Source: Candidatus Bathyarchaeota archaeon
Lineage (GTDB): Archaea; Thermoproteota; Bathyarchaeia; Bathyarchaeales; DTEX01
Direction: 5' to 3'
Assembly (NCBI GenBank): GCA_963714275.1
Contig: CAVQNT010000007.1
Coordinates: forward strand, 64,001-128,000
DNA length: 64,000 nucleotides
In this document: one piece after another, positions 31,785 to 61,126 of the stretch
How positions within the stretch are numbered: position 1 is the first letter of the stretch
Layout: each line of letters starts with the position of its first letter
Translations under genes and position numbers: made by a program
The notes under the pieces: model-generated
Told to the model about the DNA's origin: nothing
Databases searched by the model: none
The model's input: only the letters and a program-made list of their open reading frames with translations

Positions 31785-32399
31785 ATGAGCCAAGACCAAG
31801 CTGAAAACCTCTACATTCCGGGAGCCACAACCGTAGGAGTAGTCTGCAAAGACGGCGTGGTTCTAGCCTCAGAAAAAAGGGTTTCATACGGCGCATTCGT
31901 CATGAGCAAAGCAGGAAAAAAAGTGTTCAAAATCTCCGAAAAAATAGGCGTAGCCTGCGCTGGACTAGTTTCAGATATGCAAATGCTGGTCCGAGAGATG
32001 GAAGCCTACATAAAACTGTTCAAGATTGAAGCAGGTCGTCCCATGTCGGTCAAATCAGCGTCCAAGATGATGTCGAACCTCCTTTTCAACAACAGACTCT
32101 TCCCCCTCATAACACAGACAGTTATCGGCGGAGTAGACGATGAAGGACCAGCAATGTACGTGCTTGACGTGCTGGGATCAAACATACCAGACAAATTTAC
32201 CGCTGTGGGATCAGGCGCAGAGATAGCCATAGGAGTCCTTGAAGACCATTATAAAGAAGGCTTAACGGTCGAAGAAGGCAAAGAACTGGTCACGACAGCC
32301 ATAAAATCAGCCATAAGCCGAGACGCATTGAGCGGAGACGGTATAGACTTCCTCATAATAACCAAAAACGGAACAAAAGAAGAATCCACAAAATTCTAA
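31785..32399 (+). CDS. psmB: Proteasome beta subunit (Thr1 apparently replaced by Ala)
   Basis: G-ATTVGV..KDGVVLASEKR, GSG and RD..SGDG motifs. Confidence 0.93.
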   Translation: MSQDQAENLYIPGATTVGVVCKDGVVLASEKRVSYGAFVMSKAGKKVFKISEKIGVACAGLVSDMQMLVREMEAYIKLFKIEAGRPMSVKSASKMMSNLLFNNRLFPLITQTVIGGVDDEGPAMYVLDVLGSNIPDKFTAVGSGAEIAIGVLEDHYKEGLTVEEGKELVTTAIKSAISRDALSGDGIDFLIITKNGTKEESTKF

Positions 32400-32435
32400 A
32401 ACCTACCAAAAAAAGAAAATAGGGATTCATCTCGA

Positions 32436-33093
32436 ATGTCTTTCACCTTAACACCAGATGAAGGAAATTTCTTAGTTAAACTCGCAAGGAAAGCCGTAGA
32501 AGAGAACCTGAAAGACGGACGAATAATCACGCCTCCAAAAAATGTTTCTCCGAAACTCCAAGAACGAAGCGGCGTCTTCGTAACCATAAACTCAGTTAAA
32601 GGCCAAAAAAGAGACCTCCGAGGCTGCATCGGATTTCCATACCCAACCCACCCGCTGATAAGAGCAGTAATCGAAGCAGCAGTTGAGTCAGCGACAGGAG
32701 ACCCCCGTTTCCCGCCCATGAAACCACGTGAGCTGGACCATGTCGACTTTGAGGTCAGCGTGCTCACCCCTCCACAACTAGTCACGGCGGCTTCGCCAAA
32801 GGAGTACCCATCCAAAATCGAGGTAGGAGTCGACGGGTTAATCGTAGAAAACGGACTGTACAAAGGACTTCTGCTTCCTCAGGTGCCAATGGAATGGGAA
32901 TGGGACTCAGAAGAGTTTCTGTGCCAATGCTGCTTGAAAGCAGGTTTGCCCCCGGACTGCTGGGTGATTAAAGGAACAAAAATCTACAAGTTCACATCAA
33001 TCATCGCCCAAGAGACTTGAACCGAACGGACAGGTAGCCACAATTGACCTTCGCGAAAAGGGCGGCGGAGAAGAACTGAAGAAGCTCCACTAA
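32436..33093 (+). CDS. AMMECR1-domain protein (TIGR00296-like), frameshift near 33016
   Basis: GVFVT, LRGCIG, DPRF, EVSVLT and GLLLPQV motifs. Confidence 0.9.
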
Positions 33094-33124
33094 GCATAAA
33101 AATAGAACTATCTTTTTTATGTGC

Positions 33125-34328
33125 CTAAATCTCGAGTATAACAGGCATGTCAGTTAGGTTGTTGCAGCCCTTTTTCGTAATTTCGACGATGTCTTCTATC
33201 CTAACTCCGCCAATTTCAGGATCGTAAAGTCCAGGTTCAACTGAAACCACAGAGTATTCATTCAGTGGTTCACTATTGTATTCGCTCATCGTCGGATTTT
33301 CGTGGATTTCTAAGCCAACACCGTGCCCGAGACTGTGAACAAACCCTTTGGTTGCCTTCTTGCCACCTCTCAAGGTGTCGTATCCAGCCTTCTCTAAAAC
33401 GTCACAACAAAGATCGTACATTTCATTTCCTAAAACTCCGGCATGCAAAGCCTCGACGCACATGTCCTTAGCCTCCGAGACAGCGTCAAACATACGCTTA
33501 ACAGCATCAGAGGCTTTCCCCTTAACAATAGTACGGGTCATGTCCGCCCAGTAACGGCGGTTTATGCTTCTGGGGAACAAATCAAGAACTATAGGTTGGT
33601 CAGCCTTAATTTTGTCTTCAGCGACTCCGTTGTAGTGCGGGTCTGACGAAGCGGGACCACAAGCAACAATAACCTCCTCCTCAACAGAACACCAGCTGTC
33701 CAGAAACCTGTGCCCTATGAGATTCTTCAGATCGCCCGCAGTCAAGGGCTTTTTCTTTCCATCTGTTTTTTGAACCAAAGTCTTGTTTGGTCCAACTTCG
33801 CAGCTTGCTACGAGGTCAATAGCTTCTAACATGACTTTTTCGTTAACCCTTTGAACCTTCGCAATTTCGTCGATTTCTTCAGTTTCTTTCGTTTCCCTCG
33901 CCCTTTCGACAACGTCAAACATGGGCTGTATCTTCAAACCTTCTCGCCTAAGCGCGTCAGCAAACATCAAAGGAAAGTTGAATGGCACACAAACAACCGT
34001 TTCCTTACCTCAGCTCACACTCCACAACTGATGCTAAAAATTTTAGAAAGCCAAGTCTCGGCTCTTTGGCTGCCTTCACAACTTCGGCATAGTTGTAGTC
34101 CACGTATGATCTCACGTCCTTAACGACAGATTCCTTCTGCGCCCTCAGAAACTCCATGGAATTAAGAACGACTAATGGTGGGCAGTTTACCTTTTTTAAG
34201 AAAATGAACGGATCCGGAGCCAAGAACTTTGTCAAGTAAAACATGTTAGGGTTCTTAAAGCTCTCAGAATAAAGCAGCAGTCCGCCTGCTCCTTTCTCAG
34301 CCATAATCACGTCAAGGTCTTTTCTCAT
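33125..34328 (-). CDS. M24 Xaa-Pro peptidase, frameshift near 34000
   Basis: DPH, D.FP, DMTRT, HSLGHGVGLEIHE, EPGLY and GVRIED motifs. Confidence 0.9.
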
Positions 34329-34472
34329 TCTTTCATCCTCCTAGATGCCAAGCTGATGTGTTAAACAGTTCAGTATGATTAGTTTTCTCATAACATAAAA
34401 GGATAGGTGAGCAATTGAGCTTTTTCATTGCCACCATAATACGGTTTAAAGATGTTAAAAAAGCTGCATAAA

Positions 34473-34596
34473 TCACCAGTGTTCAAACTTTATTATCTCA
34501 TTAAGCGGCTTCCGGTTAGTCACAGGACCTTTTTCCTCCGCAGGATAACCCAAAGGTGTCATCACAACAACGCGGACGTTTGGAGGAATACCAAGG
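34473..34596 (-). pseudogene. 3' part of an interrupted nitroreductase (LGIPPNVRVVVMTPLGYPAEEKGPVTNRKPLNEIIKFEHW*)
   Basis: Translated by hand; typical nitroreductase C-terminus that continues the 39394-39790 half. Confidence 0.9.
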
Positions 34597-34927
34597 AAGT
34601 AATGTTACGACAAAAGGTTAAGGCATGAGTAGAAAGGCTTGATTTAATTCGCCTATTATCTTTTAATAGTAAGAAATACAGATTAAAAACTCCATGTGTG
34701 AAAAAATTTGGGGGCATTCATTTAATGTTACATTATTATTGAGTAATGGGACTAAATAACCTTAAAAAACGATTATTTTTTTTGTTAAGGAATCCCAGTA
34801 TACATTCCTCAACGCAAGGTTGTTAAATGTTAAATTATTTTACGATATTACGATATAGAGATGAAAGAGAAACATGGACACCAAGAATCGCAGTTTTGCT
34901 GTAAAGAGGAAACAATAAAATTACGTA

Positions 34928-35575
34928 TTATCTTGCTCTGTTTAAAGCAAAAACATAAAATCTAAGATACTCTAAATATTCACCTTCGTTAGTAGTGATT
35001 TCCATTTCTCTGAATTTGCCATCCAAGTAAGCTTTTAGTACTATTTTATTTTGTGCATAACGATTCTCAAACGAAATACTCTCTGAAGAGTCTTTCTTAC
35101 TTACTTCCACTTCATTCTAAACACATAAGAACTTTTGAGTATACGCTAAGAATAAGGCTGCTACGTCAAGTGCATCTTCCACTTCTTCCTTTGTAGGTTT
35201 CCTATATTCGTGTTCTAAGAAGTTTCTTTTTTGATTAATCTTGCCCAATATCCTAGGTGTAATTATTCCTAGATTATTCAAAACTTCAAGCTTTCTTGGG
35301 AAATTCCATTCTTCCTTTTTAGATTTTTTATATAAGCCAAATGCAAATAATAAAGTATCCATTTGGCAATCAATTGCCCTCTTAATATTTGAAAGAGAAT
35401 TTATTAGATTATGTTCATATTTGCTATTCAAATCATTTTCTGCAAATTTGAAAAACTGCATAGTTCTTATTTAAAAAGGAACTTCGATTTCTTCAGAAGA
35501 AATAGTTCCTAAAACGATTATATCTTTAAAGTCACTAAAGAACTCTCTTAATAAATCAATACAAACTTTGCCCAT
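34928..35575 (-). CDS. HEPN-domain-like protein, frameshifted
   Basis: NSLSNIKRAID...KRNFLEHEY (RX4H motif); pieces 35575-35470, 35461-35117 and 35110-34928. Confidence 0.6.
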
Positions 35576-35858
35576 ATCTGACTATATGCGATTTAGCATA
35601 GATAATATTTCCGTTTGGGTTTGGAGTTAAAATTTAAACGCTGTCAAAGACATTCTTTTTATAAGGTCTCAAAAGGGATCTACCTTTAATTATTTCTTTA
35701 AAATACAGATTCAAAATCAATACATAATCAACTATATAACTTAAAATTCGAAAAAATATATGGTTTATCACATTGAAGTATATTTGGTTGTGAAAACCAT
35801 CGTTACACATAAGTATAAATAACACTTTCTTTTAACTTCCTTACGGATGTTTTAAAAA

Positions 35859-36748
35859 ATGTCCATGACTATCTCGGTGGGGGATTATCCTTCTTCTGCT
35901 TTTCGTTATGCTCTTTTGGAAATAAAGCCTATTCGTTATGAGGAAAAGTTTAAAGTCGGTTCTCTTCGCTTTAAAAGAACAAAGATTGCCTACGAACAAA
36001 AGAACAAAATAGAAAGTTATGAAGATTATTCTAATTTGCGTTATTCGTACATCTTTTCAGATATGCCTATTCCTTCTATTTTTTCAGAGAAAAGAGTTTT
36101 CAATCATTTCCTTGATACATCCATAAAAAATTATCACGAAGATAAAGAATTTCAGAACGAGTTAGTACGATAGAAACAAGACATTATTAGGACTCGTGTC
36201 TTTCATTCAAAATAGATTTGAAGATGACTTAGAATCCTATTATTTATCAGAGGCTTTTCGTTTCTATCACTCAAATTTTCCTCTTTCCTTTTTCACGAAG
36301 ACCGCTATGAATATTGATACAACACAAAAGTTTCTGTACCTTATTAGAAGGATTGTTAGACGCTATGAACTTAATAGTCTCTAGGCCAGGAGTCAGGTTC
36401 CCATTTGAACACAGAAAGTACGAAATGCAAATCATGCAAGAATCATTATCACCACTCATTGACCGAATGGATTTACTTAGCAGAGCAGTCTCTCAATTAA
36501 AATTATATTCATCTATTTGGTCAGCCACAAATTTTGAAGAAATAGATTGCCCGAAATTTTTAGATATAAATAAATTAGATATTAAACAATTTGAGGAATT
36601 TAACAAAAATTATGAGTCAGAGCTTGAATGTATGAGAAGAATGATTTATGAGGCTTCAAGAGAATATGATAAGGAAATTTTCAGTGAAGCAAAGTCATCA
36701 GACGAACATACTTACTCAATGTTGAGTAATCTTCTTCTATCACATTAG
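35859..36748 (+). CDS. Hypothetical protein (three frameshifted pieces) upstream of the PIN gene
   Basis: Consecutive co-directional ORFs 35859-36173, 36196-36384 and 36314-36748. Confidence 0.55.
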
Positions 36749-36758
36749 GTTTTTAGGG

Positions 36759-37529
36759 ATGTCTTTTTATTTGACTAAGATTTCAGGATGTTTTTATGTT
36801 GATTCATGTGTAATTCTTTCAGAGATTCTTGGTCAAAATCAACAAAAAATGAAAAAACTTAGAAAGGATATTCTGACAAATGGAATCGATTGCTTCATTT
36901 CGAAAAGCGTGGCTGATGAAGTAACAGAGAAAATTCAAAGCACTTCAAATTTTCTGGGAAATATTTTAAAGGAAACTATAATTGTTTATCTCGAGGATTC
37001 AATTACAAACCCTCGAGATTTAACATCTATAAATCCCACAAATAATGATTTACACATATTAAAAGAAGCCTTCTTAACTGTAAATATAAACATAAAATAC
37101 CTAAATTTAATTACTGATCCTTTTCGAATGGTTGAAGAATGGCTTGTTGAAAAGTTTGATGATGAGATATCTAAAAATACAAAACAAACAATTGGAAACA
37201 TCATAATAAATCTTACCAAAATAATATTGCAAGAAGTTGTAAAAATTAATATGAATTATGAAAGGATTGTGCAATTAGAAGCCAATTATATTCACAATTC
37301 AAATCAAACTCCTGATAACAATACAAATAGAGAGTTACAAACATTAGGTATTCATAGACCAGATTCTGACCATATTTCCGTCATAAAATCACATTTCATA
37401 AATACTAAAGAAAATGCTATTTTTCTTACATTAGACTTCGGAATAATCAAAAAGTGGAATCTGATAAAAAATGTTTTCGATATAATAGTATGTGATCCTA
37501 TATATGGTCTCAGCCATCTTAGGAAGTAG
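36759..37529 (+). CDS. PIN-domain-like nuclease with a large helical insertion
   Basis: FYVDSCVI, ISKSVADE, PDSDHI and FLTLD acidic PIN-like motifs. Confidence 0.65.
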   Translation: MSFYLTKISGCFYVDSCVILSEILGQNQQKMKKLRKDILTNGIDCFISKSVADEVTEKIQSTSNFLGNILKETIIVYLEDSITNPRDLTSINPTNNDLHILKEAFLTVNINIKYLNLITDPFRMVEEWLVEKFDDEISKNTKQTIGNIIINLTKIILQEVVKINMNYERIVQLEANYIHNSNQTPDNNTNRELQTLGIHRPDSDHISVIKSHFINTKENAIFLTLDFGIIKKWNLIKNVFDIIVCDPIYGLSHLRK

Positions 37530-37561
37530 CAAACAATTATTCTGAGAATAAGATTTTAAAT

Positions 37562-37729
37562 TTATTCTTTTATGTTATTTGCCATATAGCGTTTACATTT
37601 TGGGCAAATCCAGCCCGCTTTTTTTAGCTGTCTTCCACTCTGAGTGTATAACCTTCGCATATGTTGTTTTTTTCCGCTTTTTGTTCTACAACCATTAGGA
37701 CAGATAGGACTTTCAGATCTTCCACTCAT
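37562..37729 (-). CDS. 55-aa zinc-ribbon protein (CPNGC...CPKC), below the ORF-track cutoff
   Basis: Intact ORF MSGRSESPICPNGCRTKSGKKQHMRRLYTQSGRQLKKAGWICPKCKRYMANNIKE, divergent from the integrase. Confidence 0.7.
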   Translation of the reverse strand: MSGRSESPICPNGCRTKSGKKQHMRRLYTQSGRQLKKAGWICPKCKRYMANNIKE

Positions 37730-37766
37730 ACACCAAGAATTGTTTTGTATGTTATTTAAGATTTCT

Positions 37767-37815
37767 TTTACTATAGTAAACGGTAAGGCTTATATTTCCC
37801 TTTTACTACAGTAAA
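37767..37815. promoter_or_regulatory. Pair of palindromic operators flanking a TATA-like box
   Basis: TTTACTATAGTAAA (37767-37780) and TTTACTACAGTAAA (37802-37815), each followed by CGG; TTATAT lies between them. Confidence 0.7.
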
Positions 37816-37836
37816 CGGCAACAAAAGGGGTTTAAC

Positions 37837-39027
37837 ATGGTAGGAACGGATAAACAAGTTTTCAGCGAATCAATTGATCTTCGAGTTAAGACTAATGGAA
37901 GACCAAAAGTAAACCGTGAACTTGCGGTTCAGCTTATGAAATCTAATTATTCTACCCGATACATCAGAAAAGTTTTAAAATGTAGTCCCCGAACCCTGAG
38001 CTAGCATAAGAAAAGAAAATAATGTTTCTGATGTTAAGATAAATCCCGAAAGGCTTGAAAGGTTAAGCATAAATTTTGATGAAGAATGTAAAGAAGCTGT
38101 CGGGATCTCTTTTTATGAATGGCTTAAAAATAGAGCTGTGAATTATGTTGTTCTTTTTAATTTCTGTAAAAAAGTTTATGAAGATGTTTGGAATAAGCCA
38201 AGTATTCTTTTGTTAAGAGATCCGAAAGAAAAGTTTGGGGATCAAGTATGCTCTAAATTCCTTTCAGTTTTTCAGGAAGACGAAAAAAGGATCAGAAGAC
38301 GAAAGAAAATAATAAGGTATTTCTTCCGTTTCATAGGGCGACAGGATCTTAACGAAAGATACTTAACAGTAAAAAAAAGCCGAGATCTAATAGTGAAACG
38401 GGATCTTCCTGTAATAACGAATATGGATTTTCCCGAAAAGGTAGATCAGCTTATCGGGATGGTTCAAAAGAATTTAGGGGAAGAATACGCATTAGCCTTA
38501 CGCTTTAAACTTGTTACTATGATGCGAACAGGAAACAGGAAAGCAGAAAAAGAGCTTTTAGGATTAAAAAAGGATCTTGGTAAATCTTGGATCTCTTTCG
38601 AGAATAAAGACAGGTTCAAGGGAAAGATCTTAGGGAAGGGCATGGAAGAATGGGGAATAGATTGGCTACCTATAACAGTAAGACACGAAATTTTTAGACT
38701 ATATTCTTCCCGAAAGATTGGGGAATACCTGTTTAACATAAATGAAAAAACCTTACTGAAAGAATTAAGGAAAGATTGTTTAGCGTTAGGACTTCCCCCC
38801 TTAAGATTGCATGATTTAAGGAAAGTTACAATATCTTGGTTTTGGGTTTTTGGGATAGATCTTTCGATAGCTACAGAGTTAACGTGGGATGGAAGGATCT
38901 TAACACAGTTAAAGACCATTACCTAACGATTAATGAGCTGATCCGAAGAACGGACAGGAAATTATACAAATCAGCGATCCCCGAATGGTTCAAGGAAGGA
39001 TTAGAAGAATACCTACCAATATTTTAA
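37837..39027 (+). CDS. Tyrosine recombinase with N-terminal HTH, frameshifts near 38000 and 38880
   Basis: TMMRTG (R), LHDLRK (HxxR), VGWKDL (W) and DHYL (Y); N-terminal GRPK...HTH-like segment from ATG 37837. Confidence 0.82.
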
Positions 39028-39339
39028 GCCTTAAAACTATAGTCTGTTTAGTTATATTCTTAGTTAAGCTAATTATAGCTATTTAGATGTATCCTTAATT
39101 GAGTTAATTATAATTGATTTATTGCAAAAAAAGATGGGGAGACAGAAAGAAACCAATTAAGCTAGATGGTTTGAAACGCATGGTTATAAAGTAATTCATA
39201 AGGGTTTTAATAATCCTGATGGGGAAAGCAAAAGGTAGTCACCGAGGAGCTACCGATATTCTTAAAATGAACCCCTTTTCTTTTATGGGGGTTTAAACGG
39301 AAAAATATTTTTTAGGTAGCTACCGTTAAACGAACCCCC

Positions 39340-39362
39340 CCTTATTGCATACCTTATTGCAT
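39340..39362 (+). repeat. Tandem CCTTATTGCAT x2 near the right end of the element
   Basis: Exact 11-bp copies at 39340 and 39352. Confidence 0.7.
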
Positions 39363-39393
39363 GGATTCCATGCAGAAACTACGTTAATTAAGA

Positions 39394-39790
39394 ACCAAGG
39401 GCTTTTTTAACCTCGTCTTCAATGAAGGCTCCAATCCAGCATGTTCCCAACCCCTCTTCCCATGCAGTCAAAACAAGAGTCTGCATAGCAATAGCGATGT
39501 CAACTTTCCAGTATTCTTCTCCGTCAAACTTTTTCCAAGCTTTTATCCAAGTGTGCACATGCCACAATGATTACGGGTGCAGAAATGAGCCATTCACCGC
39601 CATAAGCTGGTTTGAGCTTTTGTTTTATTTCAGGGTCTGTTACGATGATGAAGGTCCATGGTTGAAAATTGACCGCTGAAGGCGAAAGCCTAACCGATTC
39701 AAGAACCCTCATGAGCTTCTTTTTTGTTACAGGTTTACTCTTGTATTTCCTGATGCTTCTTCGAGTTCTGATTGCCTCAGATACGTCCAA
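39394..39790 (-). pseudogene. 5' part of an interrupted nitroreductase (additional frameshift near 39542)
   Basis: RRSIRKY, SPSAVNFQPW, DIAIAMQ.L.L.A...GLGTCWIGAF.EDEVKKALG, then TCT TAA inside the element. Confidence 0.9.
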
Positions 39791-39878
39791 CTTTAATCAC
39801 ACAACTCATATTTTACGTGGACACAAAAAAAGTTTTTTCGATATTCAAGCCTGTTTTTAATAAACTAGGTGGGAGAGG

Positions 39879-40370
39879 GTGAACACCACCCTTAATTACA
39901 GCCCTTTTCACAATTGTAAACGGAAAAGTATGCGCGACATTGAAATGGCAAAAGAAATCCTAGGCAATAAAGGAGTTTCATTAGTAATAGTCAAGGAAGG
40001 ACAAATCCTTTTCGAGTCGGATTCGTCAGGAATCCGTGGACTGCTTCAATCTATTGAAAAGCTGAAGATAGAAATGTATGGCTCCTCAGTTGCAGACAGG
40101 ATTGTTGGAAGAGCAGCCGCCCTTTTATTAGCATATTCCCGTGTAAACGAGATTTATACATCTGTCCTCAGCAGAGGAGGATTGGAGGTGCTTGAAGAGA
40201 ACCGCATAAAAGTTGAATGCCAAAACTTAGTGCAAATAATTCTTGACCAAACGGGAAAAAACATCTGCCCCTTCGAAAAGTTCTCGTCCGAAATCAAGTC
40301 TTTGGACAAAGCCTTCGAACAGCTGAAAGACTTCGCTGAAAAATTTTGGAAATCAAAACAATGTTCTTGA
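39879..40370 (+). CDS. DUF1893-family protein (TM1506-like)
   Basis: GIRGLL, VADRIVGRAAA and ICPFE motifs. Confidence 0.8.
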   Translation: MNTTLNYSPFHNCKRKSMRDIEMAKEILGNKGVSLVIVKEGQILFESDSSGIRGLLQSIEKLKIEMYGSSVADRIVGRAAALLLAYSRVNEIYTSVLSRGGLEVLEENRIKVECQNLVQIILDQTGKNICPFEKFSSEIKSLDKAFEQLKDFAEKFWKSKQCS

Positions 40371-40406
40371 ATTAGCTTTTCTTCAAACAGCTTTCGTTAG
40401 GGTCTT

Positions 40407-40706
40407 TCAACTAATCAGGCTTTTTTTCTCCATAAGCTTGGATAGTTCTTCCATTAGTCGTTCCATGTACGTTATGCCCTTAAACTCAAGACCGTAATTC
40501 CTCAAAACAAAGGCGATGGACATGAAACTCCTTGTTCGCCAGTGTTCTTTCACTGCATCATAATCTTCGGAGGATATGGCGTCCACTAAGCGTTTGGCGT
40601 CCTTTTGAACCTCAGCCTCGTTGACATATCCCTCAAGTCTAAATGGATTTTTCTTAGCTTCTGACCTAAGGAACTTTTTGAATGCTTCATCAGACATTTT
40701 ACTCAA
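40407..40706 (-). CDS. Small hypothetical protein downstream of the MCM-like ATPase
   Basis: 99-aa co-directional ORF. Confidence 0.65.
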   Translation of the reverse strand: MSKMSDEAFKKFLRSEAKKNPFRLEGYVNEAEVQKDAKRLVDAISSEDYDAVKEHWRTRSFMSIAFVLRNYGLEFKGITYMERLMEELSKLMEKKSLIS

Positions 40707-40758
40707 TCTCTTTTTGACAAAGATTCACAATATAAATGAAGTGATACTCCACGTCATC

Positions 40759-42555
40759 TCACGGATTGTCCTTGAAGACTTCTTCCAGAACTTCCTTTGG
40801 TTCAAACGTTTCCTCAGACCTCACTGAAGCTTCCTCGACATAAAGTCGAGTCGCATACCTCAAAGCCTCTTTACTTACCGGCACGAAATCTGTGTCTGCG
40901 CGGAAATACTCCATTAAAGAAGCCGCGGAGGCAAACCTGAGCGCCTTGTCTTCCAGCCTTGCTGAAAACTTGACAACTTTTTGGGGAATCCTTTCAAGGA
41001 TTGCTACCCTAGCCTTTCCGATAATGTCGAAAACCTGCGGAGTGATCATGACAGGTTTGAACCTGAAACGGTTCTTTATTAAGGGATGCCCAGTTTCTAT
41101 GGCGTAGACCAGAGTTAAATGGTCTCGGATTTTCTGTGCGTCCTTTTCTATATCTATGGCTCCAAGCGCTAACTTCATTTGGCTCTTCGTTAACTCAATG
41201 AATCGCTCCTTTGTTAATCGGTGCAGACGACAAAGCATCCTGTCCTCTATTGCGTTAAAATTTGGGTCCTGAATGGTTACTTCGTAGCCTCTGTCATGAA
41301 TTGCCGCGTTATAGTTCACAGAAAAGAACGAGGTGAACCTGTACGGTCCAACGACTTCAGCGTGGGTCTCATACATTATCTCGCCCTGCTCCATCGCAAT
41401 CTTCAGTGGCTCCACCATGCCCTTGTACCTAAAAAAGTCGTTAAACTCGGGCACAATAAAATTATAAACTTTGCCGCTGTAGGCTTGACCGATCCTTATG
41501 AAACGCGCTGGAGTAATTCCTCCACAATACCTGTTTCTGCCCGGAATACCGTGCGCACCTATCTTGGCTCTGGGGCTTCCAAGAATCATGTCTCTCGTCG
41601 AAAAGCTTTTTCCAGTGCCTGGATCACCGAACAAAGCCAGAGACCAGCCTGTTCTTTTTCCTGTTCCGCCGTGTTCGTGGGTGATCTCGATGTTCGCAAG
41701 CCCGTATTGCTGGGTAATGCTCAATAAACTGTCAAAGTAGAGGACTTGCCCGAAAAGATTCTGTAGGTAACTTGACAGGTACTCGAGGTTGAACTCTTTC
41801 CCAAACTTTAATGTGCGGTCAAGCCTGTGCTTCAAGACATCTTCCAAGTACTCATCGAACCCTTGGTCCATTTCCTCGACCTTTTTCTTTTCATCAAAAA
41901 GGTGGTCAACAACTCTGGATTTTTCTTTAGAAGCAACTTGAGGGAAACGGTCTGTAAGTTTTACGACTGGTCTAATTGGTTTAGGCGGCTTTTTTCTTAT
42001 TCCAAGTTCAAACTCTATGATGGGAACTGTCTCGTCGAGAATTTGCCATTCTTGGTATTTGTCGCCCTTGTATGATGTGACTATTAGTTTTGACCTTTCA
42101 AGCTCATCCAAAACCTCTCGGAGTTCATCCGTCTTAACTTGCCTCTTCATTTCTTCGAAGCTCACGGGACCATGACTTTTCATCAAAGCCTTAAGGATGG
42201 AGATTGTAAACGGACCATATCGGGCTTTGGCTCTGCGAATACCATTCTCAACTGTTTTAGAGGCTGTTTCTTTCAACAAAATTCCATCCTCAAACGTGTA
42301 AAATCTTCCTCTAAAGATTGCCCAGTCTCGCGGTTTAAATTTATTTAGAACCTGTTGAAGCCCATCATCATCCAATTCCTGAGCAATTATGAACGATGTC
42401 TCTTCTTCATTCCCGATTTTCCATTTATTTGCCAAGTCCTTAAAGCAAGATATTTTTATCCATTTGCCGATGCTGAAAAGGTCAGCTCTTGAAAAAACTC
42501 TTTTCAGAAGCATGGCTCTTTCAATTAACTTTTCGTTTTCTTCGAGATCAGACAA
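40759..42555 (-). CDS. Divergent MCM-like AAA+ ATPase with a non-MCM (wHTH-like) N-terminus
   Basis: LFGDPGTGKS, IVPEFND, AMEQGEI, IEDRM and FSARL motifs. Confidence 0.75.
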   Translation of the reverse strand: MSDLEENEKLIERAMLLKRVFSRADLFSIGKWIKISCFKDLANKWKIGNEEETSFIIAQELDDDGLQQVLNKFKPRDWAIFRGRFYTFEDGILLKETASKTVENGIRRAKARYGPFTISILKALMKSHGPVSFEEMKRQVKTDELREVLDELERSKLIVTSYKGDKYQEWQILDETVPIIEFELGIRKKPPKPIRPVVKLTDRFPQVASKEKSRVVDHLFDEKKKVEEMDQGFDEYLEDVLKHRLDRTLKFGKEFNLEYLSSYLQNLFGQVLYFDSLLSITQQYGLANIEITHEHGGTGKRTGWSLALFGDPGTGKSFSTRDMILGSPRAKIGAHGIPGRNRYCGGITPARFIRIGQAYSGKVYNFIVPEFNDFFRYKGMVEPLKIAMEQGEIMYETHAEVVGPYRFTSFFSVNYNAAIHDRGYEVTIQDPNFNAIEDRMLCRLHRLTKERFIELTKSQMKLALGAIDIEKDAQKIRDHLTLVYAIETGHPLIKNRFRFKPVMITPQVFDIIGKARVAILERIPQKVVKFSARLEDKALRFASAASLMEYFRADTDFVPVSKEALRYATRLYVEEASVRSEETFEPKEVLEEVFKDNP

Positions 42556-60481: not shown

Positions 60482-60609
60482 GCGAATCCCAGACATCTAA
60501 CCGTTTGGGTTTGGGGATTAAATTTTAATCTTTTTTTTTCTTCTGCTCAATGAATTATTTAAGCTTAAATATTCACGCGCACTCACTTATTCTTAGCGGG
60601 TGATTTGTC

Positions 60610-61041
60610 ATGTCAGCAAAAGAAAATAAGGCGCTCGTGCATCGTTTTTTGAGGAGTCGAACAAGGGGAAGGCAGCCGCCATGGCCGTAATGGACGAGTT
60701 ATGCGCCACTAACATCGTCTATCACGGTGGCGCGGCAGGAAATACGTGGCCTCAAGGACTACAAACAAATGAGCGAGTTGTACAGCGCGTTTCCCGACAT
60801 TCATTTAACCATTGATGACATGGTCGCCGAAGGAGACAAGGTAGCGGTGCGCATTACAATGACTGGCACACACAAAGGTGAATTTATGGGCATCCCTCCT
60901 ACCAATAAGAAGGTGACGATTTGGGCGATCAACATCTACCGCATTGCTGGCGGCAAGATCGTGGAAGAGCTGGGAAAGGCGGATACCTTGGGCTTGATGC
61001 AGCAACTCGGCGTTGTACCCACGCCGAAGAAGGAAAAATAA
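60610..61041 (+). CDS. SnoaL-like ester cyclase, 5' frameshift(s)
   Basis: MSAKENKALV.RF; AFPD......D.VAEGDKV..R....GTH.G.FMGIPPT.K motif. Confidence 0.85.
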
Positions 61042-61126
61042 CCTCCACTAATCGTATTCCGATTTCAGCTTCCCCTCTTTTTCTGTTCGTATAAAGTTTT
61101 TGTTTTTGTGTATTTTTGTTACCCTA

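Follow-up and report, generated by a model that had tools for sequence, protein, structure and literature searches.

In the genome of Candidatus Bathyarchaeota archaeon (GTDB lineage Archaea; Thermoproteota; Bathyarchaeia; Bathyarchaeales; DTEX01) a nitroreductase gene is interrupted by an AT-rich insert of 4,804 bp (34597-39400), which encodes a tyrosine recombinase and is bordered by a 7-bp direct repeat. The stretch that we have analyzed, called the window here, comprises 64,000 nt of assembly GCA_963714275.1 (contig CAVQNT010000007.1, positions 64,001 to 128,000 of the forward strand). Coordinates are positions in this window unless a contig of the host genome is named. The host genome, labelled G000, is a metagenome-assembled genome (MAG) of 2.64 Mb that is 91% complete. 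The insert is very probably a small cryptic element that carries its own integrase and that was inserted into the nitroreductase gene as a strain-specific and incidental event. The non-viral mobile elements of Bathyarchaeia are almost uncharted. The locus is a fully delimited example for which a matching natural empty site is available; its core is very short, and its integrase is from a family that is close to dark matter.

The split gene and its natural empty site

The nitroreductase gene lies on the minus strand and is split at codons 130-132 of about 170. The 5' part (39401..39790), recognized by its translation and by matches to PF00881, starts with a TTG codon at 39790. On this strand positions 39790..39391 code for the first 132 residues; the frame reads ...EDEVKKALG, enters the foreign DNA with a single serine and ends at a stop at 39391. 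The 3' fragment (34473..34596, minus strand) was identified by translation and is collinear with the C-termini of intact orthologues. It consists of the last 38 codons and the stop codon, which follow the leucine and glycine codons in the repeat. Its translation, LGIPPNVRV...KFEHW and a stop, occupies 34601..34473, and the last 38 residues (IPPNVRV...) are found at 34589..34473. Two pieces of the 5' part match PF00881 with E values of 5.8e-18 and 1.1e-10, at profile positions 1-65 and 114-153 of 167. Since the second piece ends at profile position 153, the cut is inside the domain at about this position. It lies at 77% of the gene, and the 38 residues lost belong to the Pfam domain. The matches of the intact orthologue to nitroreductase-type NCBIfam models were all below the model cut-offs, and hence a more specific enzyme name is unjustified.

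Both borders of the insert carry the heptamer ACCAAGG. The left copy (34590..34596, plus strand), with seven letters that fit either side of the joint, is the putative core or overlap of an attachment (att) site; the right copy (39394..39400, plus strand) is placed by the sequence and by the joined contigs described below. The heptamer has 14 matches on both strands of the window against 7.2 expected. It is significant because it stands exactly at both junctions, and these were fixed independently by protein alignment; at fixed positions the chance of at least seven matching bases would be about 4^-7. The body of the element (34597..39393) makes up the 4,804 bp together with one repeat copy. 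It was delimited by GC content, by self-comparison and by its being skipped in four of four public runs. The GC content is 0.26-0.38 in the insert versus 0.41-0.48 in the flanks. The element is single copy in the host genome, where its only full-length match is itself. When the insert is removed with one repeat copy, the gene reads ...KKALGIPPNV..., collinear with intact orthologues of 170-172 aa, and apart from the repeat no bases were gained or lost at the insertion point. Thus, the original prediction, a nitroreductase gene split by an AT-rich integrase element at a 7-bp repeat, is borne out by the sequence, the translations, the GC content and the relatives of the recombinase.

Uninterrupted versions of the gene were found in relatives and in other populations. 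The N-terminal piece of the nitroreductase was used as query against 40 related genomes. An intact nitroreductase gene between the DUF1893-like gene and the M24 peptidase gene, proposed as a check along with the original prediction, occurs in two genomes of the same genus, where the syntenic gene codes for 172 and 170 aa and reads ...KKALDIPPNV... and ...KKALGVPPNV... across the insertion point. A sequencing run of the source population was not found: none of the 18 listed public runs contained at least half of the sampled words, and the best reached 0.17. The four best of these 18 runs come from four studies of wetland and sediment metagenomes, and their contigs were aligned to positions 32000-42000. 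In all four, contigs join 34589 to 39394, with exactly 4,804 bases skipped and seven shared letters at the joint. Compared to the window these contigs have one differing letter in 172-316 bases of the left flank and 2-14 differing letters in the right flank. They prove that near-identical strains without the element exist and that the uninterrupted allele occurs in nature. The proposed restoration of the frame upon deletion at the 7-bp core is hence confirmed, in that four of four runs carry the exactly joined form. Since the empty sites come from element-free strains, they are not excision products of a carrier population. Most bins across the element have a read depth of zero or close to it. 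Partial depth over bits of the element in runs X1, X2 and X4 was considered as a sign of its presence and rejected, because it stems from short conserved pieces with loose ends. The depth at 34857-34895 in the public runs comes from cas1 tails of other organisms.

The tyrosine recombinase and its relatives

The recombinase gene (37837..39027, plus strand) was identified by its relatives, their alignment and the predicted fold, and it extends over three frames. The first piece (37837-38004) codes for an N-terminal helix-turn-helix (HTH) and is collinear with the relatives. The second (38024-38926) contains the core-binding domain and most of the catalytic domain, including the motifs RTG and LHDLRK. 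The third, within an open frame at 38836-39027, supplies the GW...HY tail (NVGWKDLNTVKDHY...), the tail proper starting at about 38885. The window copy has no Pfam or PHROG match. At E values of at most 1e-3 we have found 23 related proteins among 5.8 billion, the product of the window included. The integrases P0002-P0004 are 70-74% identical. The full-length relatives are 398-442 aa long and collinear with the three pieces of the window. Six catalytic residues (R239, K276, H334, R337, W361 and Y371) do not vary among 15 full-length relatives, and the window copy contains RTG, LHDLRK and GWKDLNTVKDHY, over two frames. PF00589 is matched by 13 of these 15 relatives at E values of at most 0.01 (best 1.9e-7), and HTH_23 by three. 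The profile of the family found no PDB sequence at E values of at most 1. An AlphaFold model was made of relative P0005, the closest full-length relative used (69% identical), with a predicted local distance difference test (pLDDT) score of 78. With this model Foldseek returned archaeal XerA (4a8e) first, followed by XerH, lambda Int, Tn1549 Int, IntI and Cre. Judged by motifs and predicted fold, the integrase is a divergent tyrosine recombinase that is fused to an HTH.

Members of this integrase family are rare in genomes. They occur in three of 301 genomes of the order and in four of 401 genomes of the class, the host genome being counted in each, while sediment metagenome contigs hold 66 loci. 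A profile built from the full-length relatives only found nothing in a viral-contig collection and one distant relative (27% identity) in a genome-contig collection. The 22-mer of the right end of the element had no exact match in either collection. Where relatives of the integrase lie on long contigs, they are accompanied by co-directional arrays of unknown genes, and one of ten large open reading frames (ORFs) has a Pfam family. These long contigs look like free elements.

A check proposed with the original prediction was whether homologues of the integrase are also inserted in nitroreductase genes. None of the 67 loci with an integrase relative lies beside a nitroreductase, which speaks against a dedicated target. 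A tblastn search of these loci with the two intact nitroreductases and seven ORFs of the element gave no match at E values of at most 1e-3, most of the contigs being short. The HTH piece alone gave 34 tblastn matches in the 67 loci, and this HTH is part of the integrase itself. One locus, L052, reaches host genes (MaoC, KaiC-like). Nine contigs of 10-16 kb (L048, L049, L062, L067-L070, L077 and L081) hold the integrase relative amid co-directional ORFs without a known family, some of them 500-730 aa long; these contigs probably represent sediment-archaeal viruses or plasmids that are still undescribed.

Integration and competing explanations

How could the element have entered the gene? We propose that its HTH-tyrosine recombinase of about 400 aa would catalyze conservative site-specific recombination into the chromosome. 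The exchange would take place between ACCAAGG adjoining the integrase gene on a circular form of the element and the same 7 bp in codons 130-132 of the nitroreductase gene. The last 38 codons are cut off, which would inactivate the nitroreductase paralogue in this strain. The insertion is strain-specific, probably recent and most likely incidental, at a low-information or secondary target, rather than a domesticated switch. Recombination by the element's own integrase fits, since there are no terminal inverted repeats, no transposase or casposase and no tRNA or Rfam family, since the integrase gene ends 367 bp from the right repeat, and since 7 bp is the classical overlap length. For inverted repeats at the ends the alignment score was 13, a value that was reached in 338 of 500 shuffles (mean 13.9). 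The search for a tRNA or an Rfam family at the element gave nothing. The layout is that of an att-flanked cryptic element: the integrase gene is near one end, direct repeats form the borders and an empty site exists in relatives. It is not the layout left by SSV-type integrases, where integration splits the integrase gene, as all three pieces lie together inside the element and the junctions are outside the gene. We infer three things: the insertion was carried out by the integrase, the crossover took place within the 7 bp, and the truncated enzyme is inactive. The element may still excise.

Several observations weigh against this proposal. The identity between attB and attP is limited to 7 bp, and the dyad symmetry around the core is weak, with at best 5-6 of 9 arm positions. 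Both features are unusual among well-studied tyrosine recombinase sites. Furthermore, a single copy cannot tell an att core from a 7-bp target-site duplication. Neither a circular (attP) form nor a mixed population of occupied and empty sites was found among the runs examined, all of which represent other populations. Finally, the integrase gene has two breaks where 0.53 are expected for its length (P about 0.10), so that real decay is possible.

A decayed integrase would fit an insertion that is dead. Here the element would have integrated once, its integrase would have decayed by frameshifts, the nitroreductase would be decaying as well and nothing would be mobile any longer. As assembled, the integrase needs two frame changes, and in the nitroreductase 5' part the T run at 39541-39544 is one base too long, which shifts the frame. 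In addition, an in-frame stop interrupts one cargo ORF, and a further region of the element spans three frames. Yet the neighbouring M24 peptidase gene is likewise frameshifted at about 34011, and such breaks are found genome-wide. For a census we took 232 ORFs of at least 200 aa from 400 kb of the sister genome G002 and compared them with the host genome; 164 orthologues with at least 60% identity and at least 80% coverage were kept and 68 ORFs were dropped. Frame changes were seen in 67 of the 164; the total of 90 switches in 203 kb corresponds to 0.44 per kb. By an alternative criterion (best single match below 90% of the length) 65 orthologues were split. In a genome that is 91% complete, such a rate cannot plausibly be biological. 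The two breaks of the integrase gene do not exceed this background significantly, and the four breaks of the three genes taken together exceed it marginally (expected 1.25, P 0.04). The three single-base differences in the flanks are extra bases of the window that independent short-read contigs do not have: one base is missing at 33015 and at 34011 in four of four runs, and at 39541 in the three runs that cover it. At 38885 an A run has lost one base, and at 39541 a T run has gained one. One-base losses and gains in homopolymer runs are typical of long-read errors, and this is what these two breaks look like. The simplest reading is that the host assembly is an unpolished long-read assembly. 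Because frameshifts occur throughout the genome, the breaks in the integrase, nitroreductase and M24 peptidase genes cannot be read as decay, and for the same reason confirmed integrase frameshifts, which the original prediction had named, together with missing attB/attP reads, as the mark of a dead insertion, are no usable test in this assembly. We regard a dead insertion as unlikely. As a practical caution, frameshifts in the host genome are no evidence of pseudogenes, and polishing is needed before pseudogenes are called. The breaks at about 34011 in the M24 peptidase gene and at about 38000 in the integrase gene share the context CTGAG; a systematic base-calling error might lie behind this.

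At the other extreme stands an element that is active and reversible, with a new HTH-fused integrase family of sediment archaea that needs only 7 bp of identity and enters and leaves coding sequences precisely. We consider this improbable. If true, it would mean reversible, heritable knock-outs of accessory genes in Bathyarchaeia populations, an archaeal counterpart of the bacterial 'active lysogeny' and gene-intervening elements, and the first minimal tyrosine-recombinase att site in archaea that is open to biochemical study. A step further, the element might be kept in the gene as a reversible switch that excises under certain conditions and restores the nitroreductase, as skin does in sigK and SPbeta in spsM. 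The nifD element is a bacterial gene-intervening element of the same type. Excision at the repeat would rebuild exactly the natural open allele, all catalytic residues of the integrase are present, and an ORF resembling a zinc ribbon as well as palindromic repeats upstream of the integrase could be control parts. To our knowledge, domesticated switches are fixed in their lineages. Here, the insertion is absent from four of four other populations and from both sister species (two of two same-genus genomes) with the syntenic gene, which speaks against such fixation. The core is not conserved either and is absent from nine of nine orthologue sites inspected: its coding-strand form CCTTGGT is species-specific, and the sister species have CCTAGAT and CCTAGGC at the orthologous site. 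No directionality factor was recognized in the element by searches against Pfam, PHROGs, PADLOC and NCBIfam. There are ten matches to the nitroreductase N-terminus in the host genome, and another genus of the family has a syntenic copy that is cut to 105 aa; this copy (L016, G008:C28, positions 1435-1752) abuts the M24 peptidase gene and contains no element. By its sequence, the same paralogue appears to have been lost independently in the genus of G008. With about ten family matches in the host and a truncated copy elsewhere, the target gene looks dispensable. By arithmetic, a given 7-mer should be found hundreds of times in 2.6 Mb, so that either the flanking sequence adds specificity or the target is chosen loosely. 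A strain-specific insertion with a core that is missing from all nine orthologue sites speaks for an incidental insertion, and the comparison of sequences points to an accident rather than a switch, which we judge distinctly improbable.

Alternatively, a transposase or casposase supplied in trans could have moved the element and left the 7-bp repeat as a target-site duplication; the integrase would then be mere cargo. Seven bp is within the range of target duplications, and the host genome is rich in casposase (Cas1-solo) genes and remnants, one of them inside the element. However, the element has no terminal inverted repeats and contains neither a transposase nor a casposase, the remnant being a 38-nt cas1 tail only, and its ends match nothing else in the host genome. 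Casposon target duplications measure 14-15 bp, against 7 bp here. Transposition is thus a very improbable origin. That a chimeric join in the assembly put foreign DNA into the gene is next to inconceivable. The assembly is error-prone at the base level, but junctions that meet precisely in one codon, with 7 bp duplicated and the host bases otherwise unchanged, are not what a chimera would produce. The element also carries an integrase, as a real insertion should.

The incidental insertion of a small integrase element has clear parallels in archaea; elements of this kind in protein genes and with short att sites are already described in the parts of two papers considered here (PMC6563490, PMC8371274). 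Among Thaumarchaeota, 14 of 68 integrated elements occupy 3'-distal regions of protein genes; the shortest att sites measure 8 bp (median 17), and most elements are 'cryptic', being defined by their integrase alone (Krupovic et al. 2019, PMC6563490). The element described here resembles NitEve-E2 from that paper, which resides in the gene of a Zn-finger protein: both are small, have a tyrosine integrase as the sole hallmark, are bordered by short repeats and lie 3'-distally in a protein gene. As with the thaumarchaeal cryptic elements, the borders are verified by an empty site in a relative. In contrast to these elements, as far as the text of that paper describes them, the host here belongs to Bathyarchaeia, the repeat is only 7 bp, 38 in-domain residues rather than a short tail are removed, and the integrase stems from a divergent HTH-fused family whose window copy lacks a Pfam match. 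For Asgard elements of Atabeyarchaeia in wetland soil, the relevant passages report AT-rich att sites of 11 bp and the coexistence of integrated, excised and circular forms (PMC11529989). These elements, Yucahu-i among them, share with ours a wetland or sediment archaeon as host, a tyrosine recombinase, a short att site and populations with and without the element. They differ in that here element-free strains were seen in other samples only, and no circular form was found (compared with the passages of PMC11529989).

The text portions on archaeal integrases in PMC8371274 name Halorubrum virus BJ1 in an HMG-CoA reductase gene and Msmi-Pro1 in a cation efflux gene. In these cases too a tyrosine recombinase integrated into a coding sequence, as known from sequence comparison only; unlike our element, in which no virion or replication gene is recognizable, BJ1 and Msmi-Pro1 have virion genes. 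The same portions of this review list further protein-gene targets, none of them tested, and treat dyad symmetry as an open question. The locus described here provides a usable pair of substrates for the recognition of a non-tRNA target with little dyad symmetry by an archaeal integrase, the question left open in that 2021 review (PMC8371274). With SSV-type (suicidal) integrases our element shares an archaeal tyrosine integrase in a small element, but those split their own gene on integration, whereas here the integrase gene is whole inside the element (compare the account in PMC7253208). The bacterial elements skin in sigK, SPbeta in spsM and gin in gerE, as outlined in parts of PMC4191935 and PMC5595907, are alike in that a recombinase element sits inside a coding sequence and that excision rebuilds the frame. 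They are unlike it in being fixed in their lineage, in their developmental excision and in having directionality factors; the insertion here is not fixed. Among the papers listed by our search on archaeal gene-intervening switches, all cases were bacterial. For Bathyarchaeia, our literature searches on integrated elements returned papers on viruses and proviruses and none on a small integrase element in a protein gene, and the passages on integrases in a Bathyarchaeia virus survey mention them in proviruses only (PMC10541130). Thus, this is the first base-delimited small integrase element of Bathyarchaeia that we could find. Its core is unusually short, and the family of its integrase is poorly known.

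Other contents of the element and the mobilome of the host

The remaining genes of the element gave nothing in searches of PHROGs, PADLOC and NCBIfam, and in Pfam only sub-threshold matches to PIN_3 and DUF4145. At the left, on the minus strand, an ORF of 114 aa is followed by 60 codons in the same frame past one stop (34928..35461); its match to DUF4145 is weak (E 0.0047, 17.4 bits versus a cut-off of 23.1). On the plus strand three overlapping or adjacent ORFs of 104, 62 and 144 aa in three frames (35859..36748) have no family match and may together be a single gene of about 295 aa that was broken up by assembly indels. They are followed by a cargo protein of 256 aa (36759..37529, plus strand), for which PIN_3 was found at E 0.0047, below the cut-off. 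By eye the D/E/D positions are conserved, and the protein is probably PIN-like. Its relatives are nine unannotated metagenome proteins (10 with that of the window); P0025, 82% identical, is encoded on contigs of up to 4.6 kb, nearly as long as the element. The structure model, with a pLDDT of 55, was too poor and was not used.

The region upstream of the integrase gene appears to be a divergent promoter. On its far side lies an ORF of 55 aa (37562..37729, minus strand), divergent from the integrase gene and without a family match, whose translation contains two CxxC pairs and resembles a zinc ribbon. Our guess is that it encodes a regulator or directionality factor. Between the two genes, two 22-nt direct repeats (37765..37821, plus strand) are found 35 nt apart and are 91% identical. 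The first holds a perfect 14-nt palindrome from which the second differs at one base, and by this arrangement they are candidate operators. Just downstream of the integrase gene two tandem 34-nt repeats (39044..39112, plus strand) are 79% identical and are candidates for arm-type binding sites. An 83-nt stretch with these 34-nt repeats recurs with 83% identity at G000 C5:113237-113319 (L002:1501-1583), downstream of an unrelated tyrosine integrase. This stretch may be an arm-type or host-factor binding module common to two element families.

Inside the element a remnant of about 38 nt (34857..34894, plus strand) is similar to the 3' end of a cas1/casposase gene (..RDERETWTPRIAV..). It is 85-89% identical to cas1 tails at C6:417914-417949 and C7:144197-144235 of the host genome. 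The host has three full-length or nearly full-length cas1 genes (C7:144193-145224, C4:100207-101235 and C2:934181-935180) and more than 20 scattered fragments of cas1 3' ends. The last 68 residues of Cas1 have 27 matches in the host genome, 19 in G010, a well-assembled genome of the same family, five in G002 and four in G030. A search of the host genome found no Cas2 gene, and no CRISPR arrays were detected with exact 18-mers in at least three copies spaced 50-95 nt apart. From their sequences, the host cas1 genes and their fragments look like casposase genes and the scars of casposons. One of the cas1 genes has a PolB gene at a distance of 9 kb.

The cas1-tail remnant was considered as the primary att site of the integrase family. 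This was rejected, as tblastn of Cas1 against the 67 loci with integrase relatives gave a best match of only E 0.09; in these loci no link between cas1 remnants and the integration mechanism of the element was found. The similarity between the remnant and cas1 breaks off after the P-R codons. A break at this point is also seen between the full-length cas1 genes themselves and is hence uninformative on the crossover. The hexamer ACCAAG that the cas1 remnant shares with the core was treated as a coincidence.

PF00589 has 20 matches at about 16 places in the host genome, which with 2.64 Mb exceeds the 1.1-2.2 Mb of its relatives. Both observations point to a mobilome of unusual size. Copies of a repeat of about 600-740 bp, 78-84% identical, are present at 60531-61119 of the window and at C7:138.7-139.4 kb, C10:14.8-15.5 kb and C3:3.9-4.6 kb of G000. 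The window copy overlaps an ORF of 104 aa that by eye appears SnoaL-like, and three copies of the repeat adjoin a cas1-tail fragment.

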